32,000 bases of DNA, taken from assembly GCA_021294815.2 (NCBI GenBank), contig CP095464.1:150001-182000 (forward strand). The letters run 5' to 3'. Below the pieces are notes generated by a model. That model had not been told where the DNA came from, ran no database searches, and saw only the letters and a program-made list of their open reading frames with translations. How positions within the stretch are numbered: position 1 is the stretch's first letter; every line of letters starts with the position of its first letter. This document shows, one piece after another, positions 13,613 to 32,000 of the stretch. Made by a program: the position numbers and the translations under genes. The DNA is from Verrucomicrobiota bacterium. GTDB taxonomy: Bacteria; Verrucomicrobiota; Verrucomicrobiia; Opitutales; LL51.

Positions 13613-14890
13613 TTGTTTACTTTTCGTTTTTTTTTGATAGAAAGCGCCGTTGTGGGTCTTTTCATTAGTTCCCGCGGTGGCGCGTACGCCTCGAAACAGA
13701 GTGGAAGTGTGCTTCTGCTTTCGATTCTGATTTGCGCGTTCATTTCTGTACTTGCTATCTTGTTTACAAAGCAGTCGCACGAGATGCTTGAGTACCGCAC
13801 GGAGATCCAAATCGATCAAAAGGCCCGTGTCGAAGCTTACTCCTTTCTGGAACTCGCTCTAACATTTTTATCAAAGAGTTGCGAATCCGACAGTGTTCCC
13901 TATCTCAACAGTAACACACGTGCATGGGAGGCTGCTAAGCACGCTAACTCCACAAAAAACGGCCTCACATTCTACAAAGAAATCGTAGCACCTGAAAACC
14001 CAAATGACGATCAGAGTATCGAAAAAGCTATAGGTGAATACATCACCCAATGTGTGACCAAAACCGCCGGCGTTGCGCTAGCTATCGGTGAGGAAGTTAA
14101 GCTCGAAAATCGCAACCTGGAAAAGCTCAAGGGGTATCTCCAGATCAAAAATGCATCCGGCAACAATGTGCCAATGATCCATCACAAAGGCACACAGGGC
14201 ACGTTTGATACTTATTATACCTTCGAGGACCTCAGTAACAAGCTCCCACTTTGTGCGGCGTTCTACAAGAAAAACAAAAATCTCATCAATGCCGCCTTGA
14301 GAAGCGTCAGTGGCGAGTACAGCAACAGTGCCGACGCGATGAGCGATTATCTGACCGCCGATCACCCAAAGACTTTCCATAACTGGAATGAAGTCCAATC
14401 CGCACTGGGAAACGTCAATGCCGCTAAGCTCGAAAGTCTGAAGCGCCTGTTTACGATCGATCGCGAAGTACTGGAACACTGCGAGAACAGAAAAGTCAAC
14501 CTCATTACTGCACACGAAAGCCTTTTAGATGTTGTTAGTAATCACCTCGGACTTATGACAAGTTTGAAGGGGCACGCACGCGATCAATCGTTGATCAAAG
14601 ACCTCGGCACCCACCCTGAGGCAAAACTCTACACCGACCAAACACAGATATTTAAGCTTGGTGTCCATGTGGTTCATAACAATGACAGTATCTTCCAGCT
14701 CCAGTGCTATGGAACCTCCGTCGGCACCGAATCGTCGGGCTCTAAAGTTAGTAAAGAGACGAAGCCCAATTGGTCGGAAAGACTTGGCGGAACCCACGAC
14801 AAGAAAGACAATAAAAAGGACACAAAAAATATCCCAGTGAAAGCATCGTCACGTTTTTGCTTTAATCTTCAATGCATCGAGGAAATTTAA
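13613..14890 (+). CDS. GspK-like minor pseudopilin (diverged)
   Basis: Prepilin-like N-terminus KQSG/SVLLLSILICAFISVLAILF without Glu+5, as in GspK. It also has a VNLITAHESLLDVV motif resembling the GspK (N)xNTA helix-hairpin region, and a C-terminal beta segment (QIFKLGVHVVHNNDSIFQLQCYG). The ORF-track start is the TTG at 13613. The GTG at 13652, preceded by AGAAAG, is a more likely start. Confidence 0.55.
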   Translation: MFTFRFFLIESAVVGLFISSRGGAYASKQSGSVLLLSILICAFISVLAILFTKQSHEMLEYRTEIQIDQKARVEAYSFLELALTFLSKSCESDSVPYLNSNTRAWEAAKHANSTKNGLTFYKEIVAPENPNDDQSIEKAIGEYITQCVTKTAGVALAIGEEVKLENRNLEKLKGYLQIKNASGNNVPMIHHKGTQGTFDTYYTFEDLSNKLPLCAAFYKKNKNLINAALRSVSGEYSNSADAMSDYLTADHPKTFHNWNEVQSALGNVNAAKLESLKRLFTIDREVLEHCENRKVNLITAHESLLDVVSNHLGLMTSLKGHARDQSLIKDLGTHPEAKLYTDQTQIFKLGVHVVHNNDSIFQLQCYGTSVGTESSGSKVSKETKPNWSERLGGTHDKKDNKKDTKNIPVKASSRFCFNLQCIEEI

Positions 14891-14895
14891 GAATT

Positions 14896-15987
14896 ATGGC
14901 CCATTTATCCGATTTATTCGCAAACTGGCAGGAGCAGCGCACGTTGCTCGACCGCGAAGAGGCTTACCTTATCCCCTGCGAGTGTTGCCTAATCAGTAGC
15001 TGCCCGCGACCGGCGGAAAAGAGCAATCCCGCGACGATCGAAGGTGAGGTATCGATTTCACTTGAGACCTCGAGCCCCTTCCCGTTGGACGATATTTTTT
15101 GGGGGTATTTTGAGAACACCACCTCTGGAAACATTCAGATTTTTTCCGCACTCAAATCTCGCATCAAAGACCTCGACACCAATGCCCTTAATGCGACTTA
15201 CCTTCTCCCCGATTGCTTTATACCGATTTTCGATCCTTCGATTAATCGAGCAATTTTGAAGCATCAAGAGCACGAAACCTTTTTTCAACGCGACGTCAAT
15301 GGAGAGCTGACCTTTAGCGAGGAGATCCCGGATCGTAGCGAGATTCCTGTTGTTGAAATTGTTGAGGTAATACCAGTGCGCGAATTTGGTCTCGTTGTCC
15401 ACTACACCTGGCGGACCAATGCCGGCAGCGATGCGTTCGAAAAAGTTCTCGAGATCCCTTACAACGACCTGCGCCTCCACGCGATCAACATGCAAGTTGG
15501 GTTATTGAAAAAAGTCACTGAAAATAACAAACGTACAGCCAATATTACGCGAATCGTTAGCGTCGCTTCGGTTGCCGTAATTTTAGCGACTGTCGGCGGT
15601 TGGTTCTTATTTAGATCCCTAGCAGGACATCAAGTACGGGTTTCACGCAAGCTCACCGCCAAGGAAAAGCAAGTGAAGAGCGTTCAAAGTAAAGATGATC
15701 GCGCCCATGAACTGGAGCTCTTTTCCGACCGCAAGCAGGCTTACTTCCGCGGTCTCGATAAAATCAACGCATTGCGACCAGAGTCGATCCTGTTTAAATC
15801 GCTGCATACCTCTGAAGGCGAGAATTTTGAAATCCGGGGCGTCGCGACCTCACTCGAAGAATCCGAGCGTTTTCAGCGGGCACTCGAAGAGTCCCAGCAG
15901 TTTAGGATCGTAAAACTTGTCAACGAAGGTCTTGACAACGAGGCCCATATCCAATTTTCCCTCTCCCTAACTTTTAGAAAATTATGA
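14896..15987 (+). CDS. Bitopic GspL-like / PilM-PilN fusion-like assembly protein (diverged)
   Basis: ~230-aa cytoplasmic domain, one TM helix (IVSVASVAVILATVGGWFLF), a coiled-coil segment, then a PilN/GspL periplasmic-like end (FEIRGVATSLEESERFQRALEESQQFRIVKLV...IQFSLSLTF). The ATG at 14896 lies 5 nt after the upstream stop. The assignment rests on architecture and context only. Confidence 0.5.
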   Translation: MAHLSDLFANWQEQRTLLDREEAYLIPCECCLISSCPRPAEKSNPATIEGEVSISLETSSPFPLDDIFWGYFENTTSGNIQIFSALKSRIKDLDTNALNATYLLPDCFIPIFDPSINRAILKHQEHETFFQRDVNGELTFSEEIPDRSEIPVVEIVEVIPVREFGLVVHYTWRTNAGSDAFEKVLEIPYNDLRLHAINMQVGLLKKVTENNKRTANITRIVSVASVAVILATVGGWFLFRSLAGHQVRVSRKLTAKEKQVKSVQSKDDRAHELELFSDRKQAYFRGLDKINALRPESILFKSLHTSEGENFEIRGVATSLEESERFQRALEESQQFRIVKLVNEGLDNEAHIQFSLSLTFRKL

Positions 15988-16613
15988 AAAAACCTTCAAC
16001 CCTCAAAACTTTTTTCTCTCTCCTCAAGCCCAGCGAAAGTATCGCCATCGCTGCCGTGCTCGGTGTTGTCGCCCTTGTGGGGATTACAATGAACGTTAAA
16101 GCTTGTAAAACCTACCGAGTGCTCAAATCCGCAAATGAGGAGAAAAACAAAGAACAAAACAGCTGGCTTAGCCGAGAAAAAGACATCGATAAACATTTCC
16201 AAGACGTAATTGATGATATTCGGAGTCGGAAACGCATCGATCGCTCGGAACTCATGACGCTCGTCCAAAATGCCGCCAAACGCTTATCGCTAAAGCACAC
16301 CATTAACGGGATCCCAGAGACCGTGAACGGGAAGTTCTTTTCGTTTAACAAGGTTTCTATCACGCTCAGCGACGCCTATTTTGCCGATATTTTGGCCTTT
16401 GATAATGCTGTCGAGATCCCCGATTACGCCCTCTGCATCGATAGCATGTCGCTCGACCTCTCGGGAGCCAAGTTACGGGCAACAATCAGCCTCTCCGCAC
16501 TCGATATTAAGGCCGACCAAGATCCCAATACCCTCGTCGCGCGGATTTTGGGCTCGTACGATCTCGACGAAAAGCTTATCATGTGGAATGGGAGTAAGGA
16601 TCTCGTCGAATGA
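15984..16613 (+). CDS. Bitopic GspM/PilO-like assembly protein (diverged)
   Basis: Short N-terminus, one TM helix (IAIAAVLGVVALVGITMNV), a charged coiled segment, then a small alpha/beta domain (VSITLSDAYFADILAFDNAVE...IDSMSLDLSGAKLRATISLSAL). It has an ATGA overlap with the upstream gene. The assignment rests on architecture and context only. Confidence 0.45.
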   Translation: MKKPSTLKTFFSLLKPSESIAIAAVLGVVALVGITMNVKACKTYRVLKSANEEKNKEQNSWLSREKDIDKHFQDVIDDIRSRKRIDRSELMTLVQNAAKRLSLKHTINGIPETVNGKFFSFNKVSITLSDAYFADILAFDNAVEIPDYALCIDSMSLDLSGAKLRATISLSALDIKADQDPNTLVARILGSYDLDEKLIMWNGSKDLVE

Positions 16614-16641: not shown

Positions 16642-19398
16642 ATGGTTATGACAAAAGGAAGATACTTCGTATTAGGGCTATTTCCGCTCGCGGTTTCAGC
16701 GTCGCTTCTCTGGAACCACAATACAGCGGTCGCCGCAAATGCACCGGTAGCAACAGCATCGGCACCCGGGGCTTTACCGCCAGGTGGAGCTGGATACCCT
16801 GCGCCAGCGGATCCATATCCTCTGGAACCCGATGATGACATTGTCAATCAGCTCGTGCTAACCAACGCTGAGCCTCGTGACGTGATTGGTGTTCTCGAAA
16901 AGCTCACAGGACGGACGGCACTCGTTGAGAAACTCCCAACCTCGATTGGTAAGATTTCGATCGACATTCAAGAACCCATCACCCGATTAGAGGCGATTTC
17001 CGCCGTCGAGAGCGTATTGAGCTTGAACGGTATCGCGATCGTTGATATGGGAGAAAAATTTCTCAAAGCGGTCGATAGCAAACGGGCTATTTCACAGTCA
17101 CCAGAGATTGTTGATGATTCACTGCAGATCTATGAGCCGAATCAGCACATTTGCTCCAAGTTCTTTAAACTCAATTACCTTGATGCGAATGAATTCAACC
17201 GTCTCGTGAAGCCAATTCTAACTCCCAGCGTTTCGAATGTCGTGGTCTTTACAGCTTCCAACTCGCTCTTTATCACCGATACAATGGCCAACCTTCGGCG
17301 TGTCGAAAATCTCGTGGAGCGCACCGATACACCGATTAAAATGATCGAGGAGATCAAATTTATCCCGCTCAACAACGTTAAGGCATCGAGTGTGGTCAAA
17401 AAATTCGATCAACTCAAACGCGGGGCGTTGAAAAAATACCTTTCAAACATGACGATTGACTGCGACGATTCGAGCAATCAGTTGATTATCATTACCCCTC
17501 CTGCAAACCTCTCGATCATCGAAAATATCGCCAAACAACTCGACAATAAATGCGAGCTATTGTTGCGTTCAGAGGTGATGCGCATTAAACACGGTGATGC
17601 GAAAAAGATTACCGAAATTGTCTCTAAAATCGTCAAAGAGCAACGCTCTCGGATTGAAAAGGAGAACAAAATGGCCTTTGAACGCCAACAAGCTCAGATG
17701 ACGGCACAGGGTGCACTTGCGAATGCACTTGCTCAAGCGGCAAGCGGCTCACGAAGCAACCAGCAAATCAGCAATTCTTATAGCGAATTTATCTCGTCTC
17801 AACAGGTGCCTGGTGAAATTGGAGAGGAACAAACGGCGCAATTTTCCGCCAACCTAACACTCGAAGCTGATGAACGCAGCAATTCGATCATCGTCTACGG
17901 AACGGCCTCTGACCTCCAACAGATCCGCAATTTGATCAATAATCTCGATGTCCTCCTCGACCAGGTCCGCATCGAAGTCATCGTCGCCCAAGTTACGTAT
18001 ACGGAGGGTCAACAGTCCGGCCTCGATAGCTTTGGAGTTGATTTCAATAGAGTCAATGGCACAAAAAATGGAGGCACTACAACAGCTAAGACTGGAAGTA
18101 CAAGTGGATCGGCTGGTAGTACTAGTGATGATGGGACGGGTACAGGCGCAGTTGCTGGAACCATCGCAGCTGGAGCTAAAACTCTCCATGAAATTAACTT
18201 TAATCTTGCCCATGCAAACAAAGGAACCTTTACAGGGAGTTTAAGAAACTTTTCTCTAGACGCCGTCTTTAAAGTCGCACAATCAGACACTAATGTCAAA
18301 ATTCTCTCGACGCCGACATTGGTAACGACGCACAACCGCAAGGCAAACTTCAAGATTGGTGAAAAACGTCCATTCCTCGACTCTTCGACTAAGAGTGATA
18401 GTAAAGACGCCCAAGAGCGTATCCAGATCAAGTATGAAAATGTTGGTCTCGAGCTAAAAGTCACACCGCTTATTGGCAATAATGGTATCATCCAAATGGA
18501 AATTGAGCAAAGAATTTCCCAAAAAACTGAAAATGCTAAGATTGCATCTTTGGAATGCCCCGTCATTACAGACAAGGAAATTAATTCTTTTGTTAGTGTT
18601 GCCAACGGCGATGTCATTGTGCTTGCAGGATTTAAAGAGCGTAAGACTGACACAATGAGGGGAAAACTCTTCTTAATTGGTGATATACCCCTTATTGGAG
18701 ATCTTCTTTCCCCCAGGAAACGTGAGGAGTTAACAACGGAATTAATTATCTTCATTAAGCCGACAATTATCCTGCGGCCTCAAGATGAAGCAGCCTATCT
18801 GGATCAACAGGTTGCACGGACATCGATTAAAGAAGACATCGATTACTATAAAAAAACTGGTGGTGATTTGCTACCTTCCAAACCTTTCCCACACACTACG
18901 CTTGAAGACCCAACGAAGGGATTTTTCCCCGAGAAGGAATCTCCTCAAGGGCCTGGTTCCCATCGACAACCACATAAAGGTGTTCCGGAAACTGAACCTA
19001 TCATAGAGGAAACTCTGCCGGTCATTGAACAACCTTCACAAAAGGCAAACCCGCCTCAGGAAAAACAAAATAGCAAGAAAACGCGCCGTCAACGCCGACA
19101 CGCAGCCTCTAATACAAGGGAAAAATCCAAAAAAACCTCCAGGGATTCTTCCAAGAGCAAAACGAATCAGCATTCTCGCCGCGGACGTCACCATGAGGAA
19201 TCCGCTAATAAAGGAAAAACAGTCTCGAAATCACCTGCTGAGTCCGAAAGAGGTGCGGACAACTCGCGCAAGCGATCTCGCGGACGTCGAAGCGAACATG
19301 TTCATTCTCAGTCCAAAGTTCAAACCTCGACTCAAAAAAAATTAGACGCTGGAATGTCGAAGGCACGGGGTCGGAGAAGTAATCGTAGAGCTCAATAA
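16642..19398 (+). CDS. gspD: GspD-type secretin with a ~200-aa C-terminal extension ending in a polybasic tail
   Basis: Signal peptide, then N0 (DVIGVLEKLTGRTALVE...EAISAVESVLSLNGIAIV), then repeated N1-N3 ring-building domains (NSLFITDT, NQLIIITPP, NSIIVYGTASDLQQIRNLINNLD). The secretin core follows (RIEVIVAQV..., ILSTPTLVTTHNRKANFKIGEKRPF, GDIPLIGDLL...ELIIFIKPTII). An AAGGGA Shine-Dalgarno sequence lies upstream. Confidence 0.9.
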   Translation: MVMTKGRYFVLGLFPLAVSASLLWNHNTAVAANAPVATASAPGALPPGGAGYPAPADPYPLEPDDDIVNQLVLTNAEPRDVIGVLEKLTGRTALVEKLPTSIGKISIDIQEPITRLEAISAVESVLSLNGIAIVDMGEKFLKAVDSKRAISQSPEIVDDSLQIYEPNQHICSKFFKLNYLDANEFNRLVKPILTPSVSNVVVFTASNSLFITDTMANLRRVENLVERTDTPIKMIEEIKFIPLNNVKASSVVKKFDQLKRGALKKYLSNMTIDCDDSSNQLIIITPPANLSIIENIAKQLDNKCELLLRSEVMRIKHGDAKKITEIVSKIVKEQRSRIEKENKMAFERQQAQMTAQGALANALAQAASGSRSNQQISNSYSEFISSQQVPGEIGEEQTAQFSANLTLEADERSNSIIVYGTASDLQQIRNLINNLDVLLDQVRIEVIVAQVTYTEGQQSGLDSFGVDFNRVNGTKNGGTTTAKTGSTSGSAGSTSDDGTGTGAVAGTIAAGAKTLHEINFNLAHANKGTFTGSLRNFSLDAVFKVAQSDTNVKILSTPTLVTTHNRKANFKIGEKRPFLDSSTKSDSKDAQERIQIKYENVGLELKVTPLIGNNGIIQMEIEQRISQKTENAKIASLECPVITDKEINSFVSVANGDVIVLAGFKERKTDTMRGKLFLIGDIPLIGDLLSPRKREELTTELIIFIKPTIILRPQDEAAYLDQQVARTSIKEDIDYYKKTGGDLLPSKPFPHTTLEDPTKGFFPEKESPQGPGSHRQPHKGVPETEPIIEETLPVIEQPSQKANPPQEKQNSKKTRRQRRHAASNTREKSKKTSRDSSKSKTNQHSRRGRHHEESANKGKTVSKSPAESERGADNSRKRSRGRRSEHVHSQSKVQTSTQKKLDAGMSKARGRRSNRRAQ

Positions 19399-19419
19399 CA
19401 CGAACTAGGGGGAAGCACA

Positions 19420-20037
19420 ATGATACGTTTATTCAAGTTCATCGGTTACGGACTCCCCCTTTTGGGAGTCGCCAATGTCGTCGGAGAAACAGGTCCACAA
19501 GCAAACGTAGCCTACAGTTCACGTGGGCTGGAACAACGGTCGCCATTCGGTGATCGGAAACCTCGCTCTAAGCCAGTCATTAAGACAAGCACAGCAGCAC
19601 AAACAATACCGGTTAAAAAGCCGGAACCTCCGTTGTCGAAACGGGATTTGTCATTCGTTGGATTTTTAAGCATCAACGGCTACCGCGAGTATGTGATTCA
19701 CGAAAAAATCAAAACTGACTTCGTTTACCAAATCATTAACCAGCAATTTCCGACGCCACTCCATTATAAGGCAGGGAAGTATGATGTCCAAAATCAGACA
19801 CTGGAAGTGTTGATTGATAACGATCGGGCTCTTTGTAAACTCGGAGAATCCAAGGATAACAAGGGCGGTAGTGGTACAAGTAGCGCGAAAGTGGCTTATG
19901 GAAATAGTGATAGCAGTTCATCAAAAAACACTGCCTCCAAGGGAAATTCTAACTACTCCAAGTGGGATGACTTTTGGGACGATGATGACGACGATTTCGA
20001 CTGGCTCGATGACGACTGGGATGATTTCGACTTCTAA
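19420..20037 (+). CDS. Small exported protein, PilP/GspC-HR-like core with an extreme acidic-aromatic C-terminal tail
   Basis: Strong Shine-Dalgarno (AGGGGGAAG), then a hydrophobic N-terminus (FKFIGYGLPLLGVANVVG), a Pro/Lys linker, and a beta-rich core (LSFVGFLSINGYREYVIHEKIKTDFVYQI...LEVLIDNDRALCKLGE). An S/G/N linker leads to the tail WDDFWDDDDDDFDWLDDDWDDFDF. Coding status is well supported. The functional assignment is architectural only. Confidence 0.5.
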   Translation: MIRLFKFIGYGLPLLGVANVVGETGPQANVAYSSRGLEQRSPFGDRKPRSKPVIKTSTAAQTIPVKKPEPPLSKRDLSFVGFLSINGYREYVIHEKIKTDFVYQIINQQFPTPLHYKAGKYDVQNQTLEVLIDNDRALCKLGESKDNKGGSGTSSAKVAYGNSDSSSSKNTASKGNSNYSKWDDFWDDDDDDFDWLDDDWDDFDF

Positions 20038-20050
20038 TATGGGATGACAC

Positions 20051-21739
20051 ATGGACAATTTTTTAGATAAACTCTTCGCCTCGGTAGCACCGGATTTACC
20101 AGAGGCGATCGCGGGGCTTCACGTCGACAAAAAAATCGAACTGCTCGCGGAAAAGTTAAATGCGGATATTAACGGCGCATACGAGTGGCTGTCCAATGCG
20201 ACACAGATGCCGTTTCAGCCCAAATTCTCTGTTTCGCAAGGTGTGACGTCGATCTTGCCTGAAAAGCTCATTTTGGAGTATTCTTGCTTACCAATTGATC
20301 TGGGCGAAGGTCAAAAACAAGGGCTCGTTTTTGGCTGGCCTCCGGATGGGAATATGAAGAAATGGATTAAAGCTTCTTCAACAAAAGATTTTCAGTACTG
20401 CCTCGGACCAGCCGCGGATATTCGAAAATTCATTAACGAGCGTTTCGGTGTTGGCGCGGGAAGCTTTTTAGATGGTGCTGCCGATGGCGTTGGGCTCGTC
20501 GAAAAGAAAGAAGTTGAACAGGAGGACGAAGATGCGGTCGTGATCAAGTTCGTCAATGAGCTGATCAAACAGGCATTACGCGATCGCGCGACCGATATTC
20601 ACTTCGAGCCGCAAAAAAACTCCTTACAGATTCGCTACCGAATCGACGGTGCACTGGTTCCCGTCAGCTTACCCCCAAACCTCGTGCTTTTTCAGTCAGC
20701 GATTATCTCGCGATTGAAAATCATGGCGAAGCTCAATATTTCGGAAAAACGTCGTCCACAAGATGGACGTATCGCGTTTCGCTCCGGTGATACCTCGATC
20801 GACATCCGTGTTTCGACACTTCCGATTACCTATGGCGAGAGCATTAGCTTACGTCTACTCAATCTTGGTGAAGCGCCGGTACAACTCGAGAAAATGGGCC
20901 TTGGCGAGAAGGAATTCGATCAAGTTGTTAACGCGATTACCCGTCCTCACGGAATTGTCTTGGTGACCGGTCCCACGGGATCCGGAAAATCGACGATGTT
21001 GAACGCATGCATCCGAAAAATCGAAGACCCGGAAATCCGCATTATTACAGTCGAAGACCCAGTCGAGTACGAAATCGCGGGAATCAATCAGTGTCAGGTT
21101 CAGTCCGATATTGGGATGACGTTTGCGAGTGCATTGCGTTCGATCTTACGTCAGGACCCCGATGTCGTGATGATCGGTGAGATTCGCGATGGCGAGACCG
21201 CTGACATCGCAATCCGTGCTTCGATTACGGGACACCTTGTCTTGAGTACCCTCCATACAAATGATGCGGCCGGAGCGGTTTCCCGTCTTTGCGATATGGG
21301 GCTTGAGCCATTTCTCCTGGCCTCTTCGTTGCAACTTGTCGTTGCGCAACGTCTTGTTCGACGGATTTGTCCGCACTGCGCCACTAAAGCCAACTACACG
21401 CCGGAACAACTCGATTACGCACTTCGTGCGCTTCGTGTCCATAATCACAAAGATGAACTACAGTTTTTGGATAAGATTATGGTCGGTAAAGGGTGTGACA
21501 AGTGTAAAAACGGATTCAAGGGTCGGCTCGCGGTCCATGAAATTCTAGTCATCAGCGACAAAATCCAGCAGTGTATTATCAAAAACGCCCCGGCTCGCGA
21601 GATTCGACGGGTTGCGATTTCGGAGGGAATGCGAACACTCCAAGAATGTTCCTGGGATCACGTCAAGAAAGGCGAGACGACGCTCGACGAGGTCATGCAG
21701 TTTGCCGATAAAAACAATATGGACGACGAGGAATCGTAA
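20051..21739 (+). CDS. gspE: Type II secretion / type IV pilus assembly ATPase (GspE/PilB family)
   Basis: T2SSE_N-like N-domain, Walker A GPTGSGKST, VEDPVEY, LRQDPDVVMIGEIRD and the His box TGHLVLSTLHTN. The tetracysteine motif is CPHC...CDKC. Confidence 0.92.
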   Translation: MDNFLDKLFASVAPDLPEAIAGLHVDKKIELLAEKLNADINGAYEWLSNATQMPFQPKFSVSQGVTSILPEKLILEYSCLPIDLGEGQKQGLVFGWPPDGNMKKWIKASSTKDFQYCLGPAADIRKFINERFGVGAGSFLDGAADGVGLVEKKEVEQEDEDAVVIKFVNELIKQALRDRATDIHFEPQKNSLQIRYRIDGALVPVSLPPNLVLFQSAIISRLKIMAKLNISEKRRPQDGRIAFRSGDTSIDIRVSTLPITYGESISLRLLNLGEAPVQLEKMGLGEKEFDQVVNAITRPHGIVLVTGPTGSGKSTMLNACIRKIEDPEIRIITVEDPVEYEIAGINQCQVQSDIGMTFASALRSILRQDPDVVMIGEIRDGETADIAIRASITGHLVLSTLHTNDAAGAVSRLCDMGLEPFLLASSLQLVVAQRLVRRICPHCATKANYTPEQLDYALRALRVHNHKDELQFLDKIMVGKGCDKCKNGFKGRLAVHEILVISDKIQQCIIKNAPAREIRRVAISEGMRTLQECSWDHVKKGETTLDEVMQFADKNNMDDEES

Positions 21740-23773: not shown

Positions 23774-24592
23774 ATGGGAAATATAGACTTAAGCAATAAC
23801 ATTAGTCGTCCACGGGATGGGAGTAACATGGGGGTACGCGATGCGCTGCCGTTCGCCTCTTCGATGAGAACAAAAACGGAAATTTTTAACACTATCGAAG
23901 ACCAAATACAGAATGCCCGCGAGCAGGGAAATATGATTCCGGACGCCACGATGGATCAGCTCGTGCTCAATATCTCGGGGCGCGAAACTACTTCCGAAGA
24001 GTTACTGAAGGCAACAGAAACAACTCAAAAGTTAATCACCAGCGCTTCCCTACTTTCGGAACGTGCGCAAAATGAGCTCGTCAATACGCCTTCAAAAATT
24101 ATCCAACACAGCCATGCAAGTACCGATGTCCAGGAAAAGGGGAAGGCGCTCTACCAGGATCTCGCGGCACAGCTATCCGCACTCACTTCAGGCGAAGCAC
24201 AAAAAAAACTTCTCCAAGCAATCGATAACACTGATACCTCGGAAAAACGCCATAGCTGGCACGTCGCACTCTTTGAATCTATCGATCAAAACGCTGACCA
24301 AGGGATCGATAATATCAATGCAGTTGCTCAGCGTCCACTGATCCGCTTGATGGGCGATACGGCACAGAACCTTCCTGCGGTTTCAGCGAATGAGCAAGCC
24401 TCATTCCAACAGTCGGCGATGCATATGCTCCAAAGGGCGCAATTCCCGTATAAATTCGATGCCGATGCTTTCCGCGAGGCCCTTGTGGCTCTAGCTGCTG
24501 TCCCGGAAAATGTTCGGACAACGGAATATAGTAGGTTTCTCAAGGACGAAGAAGACCGGGCAAAAGCGTTAAACACACAAGCGGCCGAGTAA
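23774..24592 (+). CDS. Hypothetical protein, predicted helical and soluble, no recognisable family
   Basis: Uninterrupted 272-codon ORF filling the gap between the phosphohexomutase gene and pyrH. Its composition is similar to its neighbours. I see no TM segment, signal peptide or motif. The only competing ORFs are short ones in other frames. Confidence 0.55.
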   Translation: MGNIDLSNNISRPRDGSNMGVRDALPFASSMRTKTEIFNTIEDQIQNAREQGNMIPDATMDQLVLNISGRETTSEELLKATETTQKLITSASLLSERAQNELVNTPSKIIQHSHASTDVQEKGKALYQDLAAQLSALTSGEAQKKLLQAIDNTDTSEKRHSWHVALFESIDQNADQGIDNINAVAQRPLIRLMGDTAQNLPAVSANEQASFQQSAMHMLQRAQFPYKFDADAFREALVALAAVPENVRTTEYSRFLKDEEDRAKALNTQAAE

Positions 24593-26274: not shown

Positions 26275-27603
26275 TTAGAGGCACAGTGCGCCAATGAGCG
26301 CAAATCCCATCACCGGGAGATTGAAATAAATAAACGCCGGCACACAGCTATCCCAAATATGATCATGCTGTCCATCGGCATTAAGTCCTGACGTAACGCC
26401 CAACATTGTATCGGAAACCGGCGATCCCGCATCGCCCAACGCCGCCGTCGCCCCAATGAGACAAACGGTCGCTAAAGGGCTAAAACCTAGCTCGACGCAT
26501 AATGGAACACAAATCCCCGCGACAATCGGTACTGTGGAAAACGATGATCCGATACCCATGGTAATGAGGAGCCCAACGAGTAACATGCCTAAAGCACCGA
26601 GAAAAGGGCTACCGTGGACGGCTTCGGTCAACCAACTGACAAGTGCCTGCGTATCGCCTGTTGCTTGGAGTACGGCACTGAAACCCGAGGCCGCGATCAT
26701 AATAAACGCAATCAGCGACATCATTTTAAACCCCTGTGTCACGATATTGTCCGACTCATGCCACCCGACAACACCACCAAGCGTAAAGATACAAAATCCC
26801 GTCATCGCACTCGCAATGGTGTTTTCCAAAATAATTTGGACGATCAGTGTGCCTAAAATCGCCAACCCCGAAACAATGATATCCCAACGCGTACAAGGTT
26901 CTTCTTCCGTCGCATGGACAGAACGCGTTTTGTTGCGATCATAATGCCGAGGCTTCCGATAACGGTAGAGCGATAACACAAGCCCGACAACCATTCCGAA
27001 TGCCGGTAATGCCATGCCGAGAACAATTTCTTTCAGACTGACCGAAACACCGTATTGGAGTAAATTTTCACGGAGAATGCTATCTAAAAAAATGCTCCCA
27101 AAGCCATACGGAATCAGCATGTACGCAAAAATCAGACCAAAGGCTAATAAATTACTCAATAAACGGCGATCAATCTGGAGCTCGGCAAAAACTTCTAGCA
27201 AAGGTGGAATGAGAATCGGTATAAACGCAATATGGACCGGAAGTATGTTTTTCGAGGCAATGGCAATCAAACCAATAAAAACAAAAATGAGCGCTTTGAG
27301 GTGAAGTCGACGATGACTTTCTCGACTCGTAACAAAGTGAATGACTTTTTGCGATAGCCAAATGGGAACACCAGAATGCGCTACGGCTGCTGCAAAAGCA
27401 CCTAAAATCCCATAGCTTAGGGCGATATTCGCACCGCCACCGAGACCTGAAGCAAAAATCTCGAGTGTTTTGGGAACGGAAAATCCACCCAAAGTCCCCC
27501 CTAAAATCGCACCTGCTGTCAGCGCAATCACTACGTTTACCCGAAGGAGCGCAAGCCCAAGAACGCTCGCAATCGCAACGAGAACCGAATTTGTTAGAAT
27601 CAT
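26275..27603 (-). CDS. YuiF-like membrane transporter (Na+/H+ antiporter NhaC C-terminal family), paralog 1
   Basis: Polytopic 442-aa protein. LRVNVVIALT, PVHIAFIPILIPPLLEVFAELQIDRR, LITMGIGSSFSTVPI and LGDAGSPVSDTMLGVTSGLNADGQHDHIWDSCVP match what I recall of B. subtilis YuiF. The substrate is unknown. Confidence 0.85.
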   Translation of the reverse strand: MILTNSVLVAIASVLGLALLRVNVVIALTAGAILGGTLGGFSVPKTLEIFASGLGGGANIALSYGILGAFAAAVAHSGVPIWLSQKVIHFVTSRESHRRLHLKALIFVFIGLIAIASKNILPVHIAFIPILIPPLLEVFAELQIDRRLLSNLLAFGLIFAYMLIPYGFGSIFLDSILRENLLQYGVSVSLKEIVLGMALPAFGMVVGLVLSLYRYRKPRHYDRNKTRSVHATEEEPCTRWDIIVSGLAILGTLIVQIILENTIASAMTGFCIFTLGGVVGWHESDNIVTQGFKMMSLIAFIMIAASGFSAVLQATGDTQALVSWLTEAVHGSPFLGALGMLLVGLLITMGIGSSFSTVPIVAGICVPLCVELGFSPLATVCLIGATAALGDAGSPVSDTMLGVTSGLNADGQHDHIWDSCVPAFIYFNLPVMGFALIGALCL

Positions 27604-27608
27604 GTTTT

Positions 27609-28901
27609 TTAAGATTGAAAGATTTCGAGTGTCCGACGAATACGTGCTAATACCCGTTTCTTACCGAGGACAGGCAACATCCGATAAAAGCTCGGACCAA
27701 CACCGCGTCCAGAGACCGCAAAGCGAACCGTATGAATATAGTCCCCGGTTTTAACGCCATGTTGTTCGGAAAGATCGTGAATCATCTGTTCCAAATTCGT
27801 TTCGTTGAATTCTGTTAACGCATCGGCAGCATTTAAAAATTCTTCGAGACGTGGACGCGGATTGAATTTCGATAACTTTTCCCACTCTGCTTGCGGACGC
27901 TCAAAGTTTTCATCGAAAAAGTATTCTACAAAACGCCCTAATTCGGTAAATGAACGTAGCTTTTCTTGGCAAATCGTCAGGACTTGGTCGATATAGGCTT
28001 CATCCGTATGAACATCGAGTAATTCCTTCCCGCGGCGTAAAAATTCTTCGAGCGGCATATTTTTAATGTATTCCGCATTCATGTAGGCTAATTTACGTTC
28101 ATCGAAACGGGCATTCGTCTTGTTAATTTCAGGGAGATCAAAGAGACGAATCACTTCTTCAATCGGCATAATTTCGCGATCATCTTTGGGAGACCACCCG
28201 AGTAAACAAAGGTAATTGCGTAGTGCTTCGGGAATAAAGTGCTGTTTATGATAATCTTCAACCAGGGCTCCGGTTTCGCGCTTACTCATCTTCCCCGCTC
28301 CATTGGTTTTTAAGATTAACGGAATGTGGGCAAATTTTGGCGGCTGCACACCGAGTGCTTTGAAGAGCTCTACATGTTTGCTAGAATTCGATAAGTGATC
28401 AGCCCCACGAATCACATGGGAAATCTGCATCGCAGCATCATCGACCACATTGACAAAATGAAAGGTCGGTGTCCCATTCGAGCGAAAGATTACAAAATCT
28501 TTTTCCTCCGCACGGTAAACAGGCCCGTGGATTAAATCGTCAATGAGCTGCGGTTCGTGTGAAACTCGAAAGAAAATCGCCCCCTCTTGCTCGTAGACTT
28601 TATCGTTTTTTCGGAGAATTTCCAAATATTCTTGGTAAATTGTATCACGTTGACTCTGAAAATAAGGGCCATAATCCCCACCGACTTCCGGACCTTCATC
28701 CCAATCGAGCCCAAGCCAATGAAGACTGTCAAAAATAACCTCCGTCGCCCCTGGAATATGTCGTTCGCGATCAGTATCTTCTATGCGTAAAACAAAAGTC
28801 CCCCCGGTATGGCGCGCGTAGAGCCAGTTAAACAGCGCGGTCCTCGCCCCGCCAATATGAAAAAACCCTGTCGGACTCGGTGCAAAACGAACGCGTACCA
28901 T
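27609..28901 (-). CDS. gltX: Glutamyl-tRNA synthetase
   Basis: VRVRFAPSPTGFFHIGGARTALFNWLYAR (HIGH motif), LRIEDTDRER and KMSKR (KMSKS motif). At 430 aa it is at the short end for bacterial GluRS. Confidence 0.93.
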   Translation of the reverse strand: MVRVRFAPSPTGFFHIGGARTALFNWLYARHTGGTFVLRIEDTDRERHIPGATEVIFDSLHWLGLDWDEGPEVGGDYGPYFQSQRDTIYQEYLEILRKNDKVYEQEGAIFFRVSHEPQLIDDLIHGPVYRAEEKDFVIFRSNGTPTFHFVNVVDDAAMQISHVIRGADHLSNSSKHVELFKALGVQPPKFAHIPLILKTNGAGKMSKRETGALVEDYHKQHFIPEALRNYLCLLGWSPKDDREIMPIEEVIRLFDLPEINKTNARFDERKLAYMNAEYIKNMPLEEFLRRGKELLDVHTDEAYIDQVLTICQEKLRSFTELGRFVEYFFDENFERPQAEWEKLSKFNPRPRLEEFLNAADALTEFNETNLEQMIHDLSEQHGVKTGDYIHTVRFAVSGRGVGPSFYRMLPVLGKKRVLARIRRTLEIFQS

Positions 28902-28955
28902 AGTGGCGCCGACGGTACACAGATTCGCTGAAAAGGAAATAAAAAACTCCCTCTT

Positions 28956-30281
28956 TTACAGCCAAAGCGCACCGAGCAGCCCAAACGCAATCACCGGAAG
29001 ATTGAAATCAATAAACGCCGGTACGCAGCTATCCCAAATATGATCATGCTGGCCATCCGCATTGAGTCCCGATGTAACACCCAACATCGTATCCGATACC
29101 GGTGATCCCGCATCGCCAATTACCGCTGTTGCCCCGACAATACAGATTGTCGCCAGTGGACTAAAGCCCAATTCCAAACACAAGGGAACATAAATACCGG
29201 CGATAATCGGAACCGTTGAAAATGAAGAACCGATGCCCATTGTAATCAAAAGCCCAACGGATAACATACCACAAGCTGCAAGGAAGGAATTGCCATGAAC
29301 TGCATCACTTAGCCACTGAACGAGAGCTTGTGTATCGCCCGTCGCACGTAGAACTGCACTAAATCCAGAAGCTGCAATCATGATAAACGCAATGAGCGAC
29401 ATCATTTTGAATCCCTGGGTTACGACGTTATCCGATTCGCGCCAGCCAACAACACCGCCTAGCGTAAAAATCAAGAACCCTGCCATTGCGCTCGCAATGG
29501 TACTTTCTAAAACAATTTGAACAACAAGTGCTCCGAAAATTGCTGAACTCGAAACGATCATATCCCGACGCGTACACGGTTTTTCCTCACGGGTCTGGAT
29601 AGAATGAATTTTCGTACAACTATAATCTCGTGGCTTCCGGTAACGATAAAACGATAATAGCAACCCGACAATCATCCCTATCGCCGGAAACGTCATACCC
29701 AACATTACTTCCTTAAGACTCACTGACAAACCGTTTTGGACCAAATGGGTTCGCAAAATGCTTTCTAAAAAGATACTACCAAAGCCATATGGAATCCACA
29801 TGTAGGCAAAGATAATCCCAAACGAAATGAGATTGCCGACGACACGACGATCGATCTGTAGTTCGGCAAAAACTTCTAGCAAAGGTGGAATAAGAATCGG
29901 TATAAACGCAATATGAACTGGGATCGCATTTTGCGAAGCAATCGCCAAGCCACCAATCAGGATAAACATTAGGACCTTTACGAAAATAGGCTTTCCACGT
30001 GGACGTCGAACAAAAGCAATTATTTTTTGGGATAACCAAATCGGAACTCCTGAATGGGCAACCGCAGCCGCAAACGCCCCGAGAATGCCATAGCTTAGAG
30101 CGATATTCGCACCACCACCAAGTCCCAATGCAAAAATCTCCAACGTCTTTTGAGGAGAAAATCCTCCTAAAATACCACCTACAAATGCCCCTGTCGTTAA
30201 CGCAATCACGACATTGACACGGCATAAAGCCAAAATAAGTACACAGCCAACCGCGGCGAGCACCGAGTTCGTCAGAATCAT
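28956..30281 (-). CDS. YuiF-like membrane transporter, paralog 2
   Basis: 441 aa, colinear with the 26275..27603 product and carrying the same family motifs. Identity is roughly four fifths at the amino-acid level by eye. Confidence 0.85.
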   Translation of the reverse strand: MILTNSVLAAVGCVLILALCRVNVVIALTTGAFVGGILGGFSPQKTLEIFALGLGGGANIALSYGILGAFAAAVAHSGVPIWLSQKIIAFVRRPRGKPIFVKVLMFILIGGLAIASQNAIPVHIAFIPILIPPLLEVFAELQIDRRVVGNLISFGIIFAYMWIPYGFGSIFLESILRTHLVQNGLSVSLKEVMLGMTFPAIGMIVGLLLSFYRYRKPRDYSCTKIHSIQTREEKPCTRRDMIVSSSAIFGALVVQIVLESTIASAMAGFLIFTLGGVVGWRESDNVVTQGFKMMSLIAFIMIAASGFSAVLRATGDTQALVQWLSDAVHGNSFLAACGMLSVGLLITMGIGSSFSTVPIIAGIYVPLCLELGFSPLATICIVGATAVIGDAGSPVSDTMLGVTSGLNADGQHDHIWDSCVPAFIDFNLPVIAFGLLGALWL

Positions 30282-30493: not shown

Positions 30494-31015
30494 ATGTACA
30501 TGCAGTGTCCTTTTCCGAAAAAATTCCCCTCACAACTCCAAAAAGACGATGAATTTTTCATGTCGATGGCCTACAACGAAGCTATCCAGGCCTATGAAGC
30601 CGACGAAATTCCCGTCGGCGCAGTAATTGTCTATCAACAACAAATCATTGCATCTGCACACAACCGCGTCAAAACGCTCAATGATCCAACTGCACATGCC
30701 GAAATGCTCGCCATTACCCAAGCAGCGCAATTTATCGGCGATTGGCGGCTCAATGAAACGACGCTTTACGTCACCAAGGAGCCCTGCCCTATGTGCTCCG
30801 GTGCTACGATTATGGCTCGCGTCGGAACGGTTATTTTCGGTTTTTCCGATCCTAAAATGGGCGGTCTTGGCGGTGCATTTTCGCTACAAAATCTTCCACA
30901 AACCAATCACCGGCCCGTTATCAAGCAAGATGTTCTAAAGGAATCCTGCTACGAACTCGTTCGTCGATTTTTCGATACCCGACGTCACCGCATCGAAGAA
31001 ATCAATGACCTTTAA
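30494..31015 (+). CDS. tadA: tRNA-specific adenosine-34 deaminase
   Basis: EIPVGAVIV, the HAEMLAI zinc/catalytic motif and PCPMCSGA. The size is typical for TadA. The start could be the ATG at 30494 or 30500. Confidence 0.9.
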   Translation: MYMQCPFPKKFPSQLQKDDEFFMSMAYNEAIQAYEADEIPVGAVIVYQQQIIASAHNRVKTLNDPTAHAEMLAITQAAQFIGDWRLNETTLYVTKEPCPMCSGATIMARVGTVIFGFSDPKMGGLGGAFSLQNLPQTNHRPVIKQDVLKESCYELVRRFFDTRRHRIEEINDL

Positions 31016-32000
31016 AATCCAAGCGCTCTTTTTTCTTGTTCTGTGAGTAGTTTCTCCCCGTTTCCCGTATTTACTCTTCCATTGATAAAGCGAAGGCTTT
31101 TTGAAAACAAACGCTCGAATAGAAAATCAAAAGCTGATTGCAATGGCGCATTGTTCCGATCGGAGATAAAGAGGGTAATATTTGCGCGAAAATACATTAG
31201 TTCCTTTTGGATGCCTTGAATTGTTTTTTTCGGATCAATCAGTGACCATACCGCGTTGCGATAATACCCCACAAACATCGCGCGCGTCGCATACTGTTGA
31301 GCAAGCTCTTCGTTACCTCCTTCTCGGCGAAAAAATTGCGCCATATTCTCGAAAAAAAACGACCATACCGTCAGTGCCACAGACACCATCGTTAATGGCA
31401 TCTCTTTCCAGAAAATCCGCTCTTCATCACCGGTCTCTAAAAATGCCACAGGACTTTCCTCGGTGATCGAGTCATCATCCGTAAGAGTTTTTATCTTCCC
31501 AAACAACGCCTCTCGAATCGGTTTAAAACGTGCCCGTATGCTATTGGCACTATTGGAACGCTCGAGATCCGTGAAACAATCTTCTATACGTATAGTGATG
31601 ACCTCGTTTAGTGCTTGTCGTTCTTCGGGTATAAGGGCCAGTAATAAGAGTCCAAACTGCATTTGATAGAGGCTCGCGATCCGTGCCTGCATCCGATAGC
31701 GCTGGACGCGTTCAGAAAGCGCCCCACCGGCAAAGGGCCATTGACTGACTTCCTGAAAGTAGGCAGACAGTCTTCCTAATTCCATAACGCATTTCCAGGC
31801 GGAATATCCCTGCCAAATTTCCTTCCTCTCACGGTAACCGTTTCCCTCCGCAACCGCTCCGAAAGGGTTTAAAATTTGCTCGATCATCGCTCCAAGCGGT
31901 CGATTTCCCAAAAATAATCCCATCCGCGCCGCCATATCTTTTTGCCTCGCCAATACCGCTTGAGACTTAGGTCGATCGGGTATTGCCGTAGTACTCTGTG
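31012..32000 (-). CDS. Hypothetical protein, predicted helical, N-terminus possibly beyond the right window edge
   Basis: The ORF track gives 31012..31953 with a TTG start. I read the same frame as open with no stop up to position 31998, so the true start may lie outside the window. No recognisable motif. Confidence 0.5.
   Translation of the reverse strand, partial: QSTTAIPDRPKSQAVLARQKDMAARMGLFLGNRPLGAMIEQILNPFGAVAEGNGYRERKEIWQGYSAWKCVMELGRLSAYFQEVSQWPFAGGALSERVQRYRMQARIASLYQMQFGLLLLALIPEERQALNEVITIRIEDCFTDLERSNSANSIRARFKPIREALFGKIKTLTDDDSITEESPVAFLETGDEERIFWKEMPLTMVSVALTVWSFFFENMAQFFRREGGNEELAQQYATRAMFVGYYRNAVWSLIDPKKTIQGIQKELMYFRANITLFISDRNNAPLQSAFDFLFERLFSKSLRFINGRVNTGNGEKLLTEQEKRALGF

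Follow-up and report, generated by a model that had tools for sequence, protein, structure and literature searches.

A GspD-type secretin of an Opitutales bacterium with a long polybasic C-terminal tail beside a gene for an oppositely charged tail

Secretin gene and its family

The window analyzed in this study, a 32,000-nucleotide stretch of contig CP095464.1 (positions 150,001 to 182,000) from a Verrucomicrobiota bacterium of the order Opitutales, contained a type II secretion system (T2SS) block with a gene encoding a secretin that carries a long polybasic C-terminal tail, followed by a gene whose product ends in an acidic-aromatic tail (Table 1). The secretin was 100% identical to LW808_000665, a protein of a Verrucomicrobiota metagenome-assembled genome (MAG) at NCBI. 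Its Pfam Secretin domain (PF00263) scored 121.7 bits against a cut-off of 27.5, with residues 547-710 covering profile positions 3-168 of 169. Three Secretin_N matches were found at 99.3 bits, and the N0 domain, which was called in most homologues, was weak in the window protein (23.4 against a cut-off of 27). The core aligned through to the core end of solved GspD chains, and the motif ELIIFIKPTII, which closes the core, was located at residues 700-710 (nt 18739-18771). In the AlphaFold2 (AF2) model, built on 25 homologues, alpha/beta N-domains were visible ahead of the barrel.

The top NCBIfam family was TIGR02517 (GspD) with 320.5 bits, a score below the equivalog cut-off of 351.35, and the other secretin families scored far lower (PilQ 175.6, MshL 112.9, HofQ 111.6, and SctC 89.7 bits). 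The scores for PilQ (TIGR02515) and HofQ stayed under their cut-offs of 284.35 and 554, respectively, and no AMIN domain was detected by Pfam. In the Foldseek listing for the AF2 model, PulD (6hcg) came first with an E-value of 7e-29, followed by GspD of enterotoxigenic Escherichia coli, ExeD, and EpsD, and InvG and PilQ ranked behind the T2SS secretins. The gene context was also that of a GspD operon, with GspE encoded two genes downstream, a PilN/GspL-like gene upstream, and conserved synteny. The window protein is a divergent GspD-type secretin in which an S-domain-like element is preserved.

Two further segments of the secretin were observed ahead of the extension. Residues 470-516 (window 18049-18189), just ahead of the barrel, form a Gly/Ser/Thr-rich low-complexity insert (NGTKNGGTTTAKTGSTSGSAGSTSDDGTGTGAV...) with a predicted local distance difference test (pLDDT) score below 50. 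It has a 26-residue deletion in the 86% identical relative L001 and is kept in the 76% identical relative, and may be a variable, surface- or lumen-exposed loop. Residues 320-386 (window 17599-17799), in the last N-domain, were modeled by AF2 as two helices, the first of them very long (320-367) and the other at 373-386. This helical insert is rich in Gln, Ala, Glu, and Lys and is present in the clade consensus.

Table 1. Positions of the secretin, its parts, and the adjacent genes in the window.
Feature	Position	Strand	Basis
GspD-type secretin gene, 918 residues and TAA stop	16642..19398	+	Open reading frame (ORF) list, Pfam, NCBIfam, Foldseek
Secretin beta-barrel core, residues 547-710	18280..18771	+	PF00263; ratio of nonsynonymous to synonymous substitution rates (dN/dS) 0.05
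S-domain-like helix-turn-helix, residues 711-749	18772..18888	+	AF2, conservation
Pro/Glu-rich disordered linker, residues 750-805, net charge -4, 12 Pro	18889..19056	+	Composition, AF2
Polybasic disordered tail, residues 806-918; 16 Lys, 20 Arg, 20 Ser, net charge +26	19057..19395	+	Composition, AF2
Terminal Arg cluster KARGRRSNRRAQ at the secretin C-terminus	19360..19395	+	Composition, clade comparison
Downstream gene, 205 residues, probable homology region (HR)-domain (GspC/GspB/PilP-like) protein	19420..20037	+	Synteny, AF2
Acidic-aromatic tail WDDFWDDDDDDFDWLDDDWDDFDF, net charge -12 over the last 40 residues	19963..20034	+	Sequence, clade comparison
GspE-type secretion ATPase	20051..21739	+	Pfam T2SSE 2.7e-131; TIGR02533 534 bits, below cut-off 630
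Three genes upstream in the operon (425, 371, and 209 residues), likely GspK-, GspL-, and GspM-like	13613..16613	+	Order, N-terminal hydrophobic segments

Structure and composition of the C-terminal extension

After the end of the core, the frame continued for 208 residues up to the stop codon, in line with a preliminary description of this DNA that had reported an in-frame extension of about 200 residues after ELIIFIKPTII. The final 121 residues (nt 19033..19395) comprised 17 Lys, 20 Arg, 7 Glu, 3 Asp, 6 His, and 21 Ser, giving a net charge of +27, and only 14 of them were Ala, Val, Leu, or Met. The Lys and Arg counts and the roughly ten acidic residues given in that description were reproduced. 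A charge of +27 per 121 residues was the maximum over all proteins of the window, the runner-up protein reaching +14.

The extension consists of three parts, namely an S-domain-like helix pair, a Pro/Glu-rich linker, and a polycation. AF2 placed the helices of the first part at residues 713-726 and 730-739 (pLDDT about 60-80). This segment shared 93% identity with both the 86% and the 76% identical relatives, and its motif PQDEAAYL...Y..TG.F was conserved in the homologue alignment. The helix-turn-helix expected of a GspD S-domain after the barrel is therefore predicted for this secretin. The polycation had originally been placed where classical secretins hold their S-domain; in fact, the helix pair occupies that position and has not been replaced, and the polycation is appended behind it. 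From residue 749 to residue 918, the model showed pLDDT values below 50 without secondary structure (about 35-40 in the polybasic part), so this stretch is predicted to be disordered. No match to the tail was found among Pfam families or PDB sequences.

Some PilQ/HofQ secretins bind DNA, and the tail could by analogy bind nucleic acids, with the secretin acting in DNA uptake or holding extracellular or host DNA. The Ser-, Lys-, and Arg-rich composition of the polycation is the only feature in favor of this role, which we consider very improbable: the protein is GspD-like and not PilQ/HofQ-like (TIGR02517 320 bits, compared with 176 for PilQ and 112 for HofQ) and has T2SS structural matches, it is encoded in an operon with GspE and GspL/M-like genes, solved secretins have their C-terminus in the periplasm, and no DNA-binding family was matched.

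Evidence that the extension is genuine

Collinear extensions in the same open frame were found in the 86% identical relatives L001 and L003, which come from two separate assemblies, and in the 76% identical relative L002 from a third assembly. All 208 extension residues aligned between the window and L001 with zero indels, and of the six frames, only that of the secretin lacked stops throughout the extension, both in the window and in two relatives that come from other assemblies. Nei-Gojobori dN/dS values between the window and L001 were 0.05 in the core, 0.024 for residues 711-755, 0.44 for residues 756-797, and 0.33 for residues 798-918. Because the tail is collinear in independent assemblies, free of indels, and has dN/dS values below 1, it appears to be translated and to be under relaxed but real purifying selection. 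Judged from these sequence comparisons, the secretin tail is real.

Nothing was found that speaks for an artefact (a frameshift, a missed stop, or a fusion with a separate small gene). The region is purine-rich, and a second plus-strand frame carries just two stops across the extension. Such an origin has next to no probability. The evidence given above excludes a frameshift or read-through. A fusion with a small basic gene is likewise excluded, since relatives with short extensions share the terminal basic motif and have no additional gene between gspD and its neighbor, where the gaps are -17 to +74 nt. The alternative-frame ORFs at 18785..19006, 19025..19345, and 19205..19420 (minus strand) were excluded by stops in those frames in relatives. 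The preliminary description would have doubted the tail had close orthologues lacked a comparable one or had a frameshift emerged; the orthologues do carry comparable tails, and no frameshift was found.

Distribution of extensions and basic ends

Every homologue with at least 46% identity, all from Puniceicoccales/Opitutales MAGs, had an extension of 116-318 residues after the same core motif. These extensions were mostly net basic, and nearly all finished in an Arg cluster (e.g., RRRR, RIRRR, or RNRR). For the order as a whole, 80 species-representative loci were retrieved; with earlier loci and the window added, 79 secretin loci could be scored. At least three Lys or Arg among the last eight residues were present in 52 of the 79 secretins, compared with 50 of 586 control ORFs (8.5%) from the same loci. 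In the window clade, all 14 loci had at least four, mostly Arg. Among 142 diverse representatives clustered at 50% identity, the extension had a median length of 65 residues (90th percentile 157, 95th percentile 208), and long extensions of both charge signs occurred, from -63 to +21. Given this distribution in the order and in the wider sample, these secretins generally have a disordered extension that ends in a short basic stretch, and the window tail is extreme in length and charge, not unique. The view that the tail resembles nothing in described secretins holds in so far as neither a polybasic secretin tail nor a GspC-like acidic-aromatic tail came up in our literature searches; it does not hold for length and disorder, as long disordered extensions are common in this order.

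The extension was 40-60 residues long and roughly neutral in most other Opitutales, and 120-376 residues long with a net charge of +8 to +21 in a sister Puniceicoccales lineage (L084-L086, L088, and L089). Tail identity fell quickly with distance from the window, to 70% at 86% overall identity and 29% at 76% overall, and close relatives, like the members of the window clade, spanned net charges of -5 to +25.

Repeats were observed in two secretin tails of the sister lineage. That of L085 (L085:3001-5778) has internal repeats of about 30 residues (GRSAPTEPAQRRAAISEQDRGVPTKPVQRV), and that of L084 (L084:858-3176) has RRAAEERRLREREE-type repeat units, which may be helical or coiled-coil. No tandem repeat was found in the DNA of the window tail, and its birth from tandem repeat expansion is unsupported.

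The tail could also be mostly a neutral spacer or entropic bristle, in which function resides solely in the S-domain-like helices and in the short basic motif at the very end, and the middle part is a low-complexity insert that evolves quickly and drifts in charge. The tail evolves faster than the core in both identity and dN/dS (0.33-0.44), close relatives vary widely in length and charge, long extensions of either sign occur in the wider sample, and the tails of L084 and L085 contain internal repeats, all of which would be expected of a spacer. However, the dN/dS values remain well under 1, the extension is retained in all close relatives, the charge density is extreme for this genome region, and basic enrichment recurs across several lineages. 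On balance, we regard a neutral spacer as clearly unlikely.

The adjacent gene and its acidic-aromatic tail

The downstream gene starts 21 nt 3' of the secretin gene, and in nearly all Opitutales loci (about 70), gspD and gspE are separated by a homologous gene. Its product has a hydrophobic segment at the N-terminus, continues through a conserved L..RSPF motif and a Pro/Lys spacer into a beta domain of about 70 residues, and closes with a Ser-rich linker and the acidic-aromatic tail. The AF2 model, built on a 16-sequence alignment, contained six consecutive strands at residues 76-141 (pLDDT about 90) and disorder elsewhere, including after residue 146. Foldseek with this model returned PilP (2lc4) at rank 2 as the sole functionally coherent match, at a weak E-value of 0.23. 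In GspC, six consecutive strands make up the sandwich of the HR domain, which docks on the secretin N0 domain and has PilP as its closest structural relative (PMC3169554). On the modeled strands, the downstream protein probably has an HR fold. Pfam T2SSC was touched by 1 of 56 members of the family, weakly (E 0.038), and the PDZ or coiled-coil domain of GspC was absent, with no Pfam domain and only disorder after the last strand. By inspection and AF2 layout, the protein matches the order of GspB/OutB, with a putative N-terminal anchor, a Pro-rich linker, a predicted beta domain, and a charged unstructured C-terminus.

Tails of the type (W/Y/F-D)n, such as WDDFWDDDDDD..., were found in 16 of 16 homologues of the downstream protein and in all window-clade loci, including the 48% identical relative L087. 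Part of the window tail is encoded by a 15-nt tandem repeat (2.8 copies, 70% matches) at 19991-20032, and the relatives P0131, P0135, and L087 have much longer YDxYG or WDD repeat tails; the acidic-aromatic tail therefore probably evolves by repeat slippage. In most other Opitutales (L018-L081, e.g., L058:8016-8561 and L081:8079-8714), the homologue ends in a conserved basic P-R-R-R-V-I-L-P-K-K, the place of which is taken by the acidic-aromatic tail in the window clade.

Association of the two tails and a possible mechanism

Over 70 Opitutales loci, the net charge of the secretin extension was correlated with the charge of the neighbor's tail at a Spearman coefficient of -0.46 (p 6e-5, phylogeny ignored). 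With phylogeny ignored in the same way, a net-basic extension (at least +5) stood beside 15 of 22 acidic-tailed neighbors but only 2 of 45 basic-tailed ones (Fisher 5e-8). Poly-Asp/Glu neighbor tails occurred together with secretin extensions of +3 to +15 in a second lineage (L017, L057, L068, L072, and L075).

These patterns suggest that the secretin tail may act as an electrostatic leash in the periplasm and, in this clade, pair with the neighboring protein's acidic-aromatic tail, a tentative reading to which we give a probability of roughly 0.4. In solved secretins, the S-domain is positioned in the periplasm, immediately below the outer membrane, in 15 copies per channel, so the leash would be periplasmic as well. 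A normal GspD body with its S-domain-like helix pair would thus continue into a flexible polycationic disordered leash of about 170 residues that ends in the Arg cluster, and 15 leashes would bring roughly +300 to +400 net charge to each channel. The main ligand of the leash in this clade would be the (W/F/Y-Asp)n tail of the immediately downstream protein, which would be anchored in the inner membrane and dock on the secretin N0 ring through its putative HR domain. Arg-Trp cation-pi and charge contacts between the two disordered tails could then build, in any scaffolding role, a second, multivalent and "fuzzy" connection that joins the outer-membrane half of the T2SS to its inner-membrane half, besides the presumed HR-N0 contact. 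With two disordered tails of opposite charge fixed to one complex, their effective concentration would be very high, so some tail-tail interaction is physically likely. It is more doubtful that such a complex of two intrinsically disordered regions, up to 15-fold and held by charge and cation-pi contacts, is a new and hitherto unreported means of joining the two halves that may replace a pilotin or peptidoglycan (PG) anchor, and that the partner's basic end (PRRRVILPKK) gave way to an acidic one once the secretin tail was already polycationic.

Several results weigh against this pairing and against the HR assignment that it includes. No significant match to the downstream protein was obtained in Pfam, in NCBIfam, with profiles against PDB sequences, or with hhalign against E. 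coli GspC and GspB; the hhalign alignment of the family landed on residues 90-154 of E. coli GspC, not significantly. On neighbor-joining trees, the association of the two tails shrinks to one or two evolutionary transitions. The amounts of charge do not covary within the window clade (rho -0.36, p 0.20), and three members of this clade have an extension with a net charge of -5 that retains only the terminal Arg cluster. In the sister lineage with basic extensions, the complete neighbor proteins (L085, L086, L088, and L089) have 107-132 residues and are tail-less, the neighbor of L084 being cut by a contig end and not scored as complete, and no acidic tail was found elsewhere in the operons of the five loci.

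An acidic partner in the next gene had been proposed in the preliminary description. The co-occurrence of a conserved acidic-aromatic tail with net-basic extensions speaks for this proposal, but the sister lineage pairs basic tails with a tail-less neighbor, so an acidic partner cannot be the sole reason for the basic tail. For the same reason, the basic leash seems older than, and independent of, the acidic-aromatic tail, and on a rough tree the acidic tails appear to have arisen only where the secretin tail was already basic. The leash probably also, or originally, bound another anionic ligand.

Such a ligand could be an envelope polyanion. The leash would then bind PG, anionic phospholipids of the inner leaflet of the outer membrane, or lipopolysaccharide (LPS) and 3-deoxy-D-manno-octulosonic acid (Kdo) phosphates, and would secure the secretin in the envelope, doing the work of a pilotin lipid anchor or of a PG-binding module, with the acidic tail of the neighbor being unrelated or secondary. 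This anchor accounts better for the tail-less sister lineage, with its basic extensions beside complete neighbors, and for the ancestral basic ends, which are far commoner in Opitutales secretins than in control ORFs. The PRRRVILPKK end of most Opitutales neighbors also suggests a common anionic target. The organism encodes genes for PG and Kdo/LPS synthesis (ddl, ftsW, ftsQ, and kdtA), and no PG-binding domain was detected in the secretin operon by Pfam or NCBIfam. Precedents are OutB's C-terminal extension, which cross-links to PG, and the SPOR-like domain of LspD (PMC9239104). On the other hand, a polyanion anchor leaves unexplained why the neighbor switched from a basic to an acidic-aromatic end in the very clade with the longest basic extension, and the net charge of the extension varies within that clade. 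As the principal role of the tail, we judge it somewhat unlikely. Pairing with the acidic tail and binding of envelope polyanions are not mutually exclusive.

Comparison with known systems and significance

Secretin assembly and the coupling of the outer and inner membranes are known almost wholly from Proteobacteria, in which folded pilotins, GspA/B, and PG-binding domains are used. In the pairs PulD-PulS, OutD-OutS, GspD-AspS, and InvG-InvH, a helical, partly disordered C-terminal segment follows directly after the barrel, as in the window secretin. This S-domain of T2SS and type III secretion system secretins binds a partner that aids targeting or assembly, and the window secretin keeps such a helix pair at residues 711-749. 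Unlike the pilotin systems, it adds about 170 disordered residues with a net charge of about +22 after the helices, and a disordered acidic tail, carried by an HR-like protein, is the candidate partner, whereas pilotins are folded lipoproteins. The small basic repeat region of Neisseria PilQ, discussed for DNA binding, is likewise a low-complexity basic secretin region in a polyanion-binding context. It is N-terminal, consists of repetitive Ala/Lys/Gln octapeptides, and belongs to a type IV pilus secretin, whereas the window tail is C-terminal, non-repetitive, rich in Ser, Arg, and Lys, and part of a T2SS-type secretin.

For the downstream protein, GspB/OutB of Dickeya offers a similar layout, with a transmembrane anchor, a linker, an HR domain, and a 28-residue polyampholyte C-terminal extension that cross-links to PG (PMC9239104). 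The window protein has the same order of parts, with a putative anchor at the N-terminus, a linker rich in Pro, a small predicted beta domain, and a charged unstructured C-terminus, its HR homology not being significant. The OutB beta domain binds secretin N0 and its extension is functional, which gives a precedent for a charged C-terminal extension on an HR protein (PMC9239104). The OutB extension is a short polyampholyte; in the window, by contrast, the tail of the HR-like protein is purely acidic-aromatic, and a long charged extension lies on the secretin itself. As with GspC and PilP, the gene of the presumed HR protein adjoins gspD, and the six-strand HR domain of GspC docks on N0 (PMC3169554). 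Unlike GspC, the downstream protein has neither a PDZ domain nor a coiled coil, its gene lies downstream and not upstream of gspD, and profile matches are not significant. The AMIN domain of PilQ and the SPOR-like domain of Legionella LspD (PMC9239104) are extra secretin modules and plausible anchors to envelope polymers, as the window tail may be. They are folded and N-terminal, whereas the tail is a C-terminal disordered polycation without a domain match.

In place of the parts known from Proteobacteria, this verrucomicrobial operon has a conserved S-domain and a long charged disordered tail, together with an oppositely charged neighbor in this clade. The novelty, as judged from the literature searches, appears to lie in a long, disordered, polycationic leash at the C-terminus that goes together, across the clade, with a tail of opposite charge encoded by the adjacent gene. 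If the tails pair, the electrostatics of disordered tails would be a structural element of an envelope-spanning machine, and the adjacent genes would have co-evolved in charge. If they do not pair, the tail would still be a candidate for a domain-free anchor to envelope polyanions. Under either reading, annotation pipelines that trim or ignore such tails lose a clade-conserved feature.

Operon and surrounding genes

The K, L, and M labels of the three upstream genes (Table 1) are assigned from gene order and N-terminal hydrophobic segments. The only Pfam signal in their products was a weak PilN match on the 371-residue protein (E 1.4e-4), and the order of these genes was conserved in relatives. 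The first gene (window 13613-14890) has an uncertain start: the mechanically derived ORF of 425 residues begins at TTG, and the calls in relatives gave 238 (L001), 402 (L002), and 426 residues (L087). Its product has a pseudopilin/GspK-like N-terminal hydrophobic segment and no family match. Pseudopilin and GspF genes were not found in the window, and no lipoprotein pilotin gene was found in the operon, the rest of the genome not having been searched.

The order ftsW, ATP synthase a/c/b/delta, T2SS block, phosphoglucomutase, UMP-kinase-like gene, and frr was the same in the 86% and 76% identical relatives. The ORFs at 23774-24592 (272 residues) and 31012-31953 (313 residues) had no Pfam match; the former also had no NCBIfam match and is syntenic with a 249-residue gene of L002 between pgm and pyrH. 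At window 26275-30281, a minus-strand gene of the glutamyl/glutaminyl-tRNA synthetase family (Pfam tRNA-synt_1c) is bracketed by two paralogous Na+/H+ antiporter genes (442 and 441 residues) with the same Pfam pair. The source contig is 878 kb long, and the close relatives are Puniceicoccales MAGs, the isolate names of which we take to denote termite-gut bins. This suggests a host-associated lineage with a small genome.

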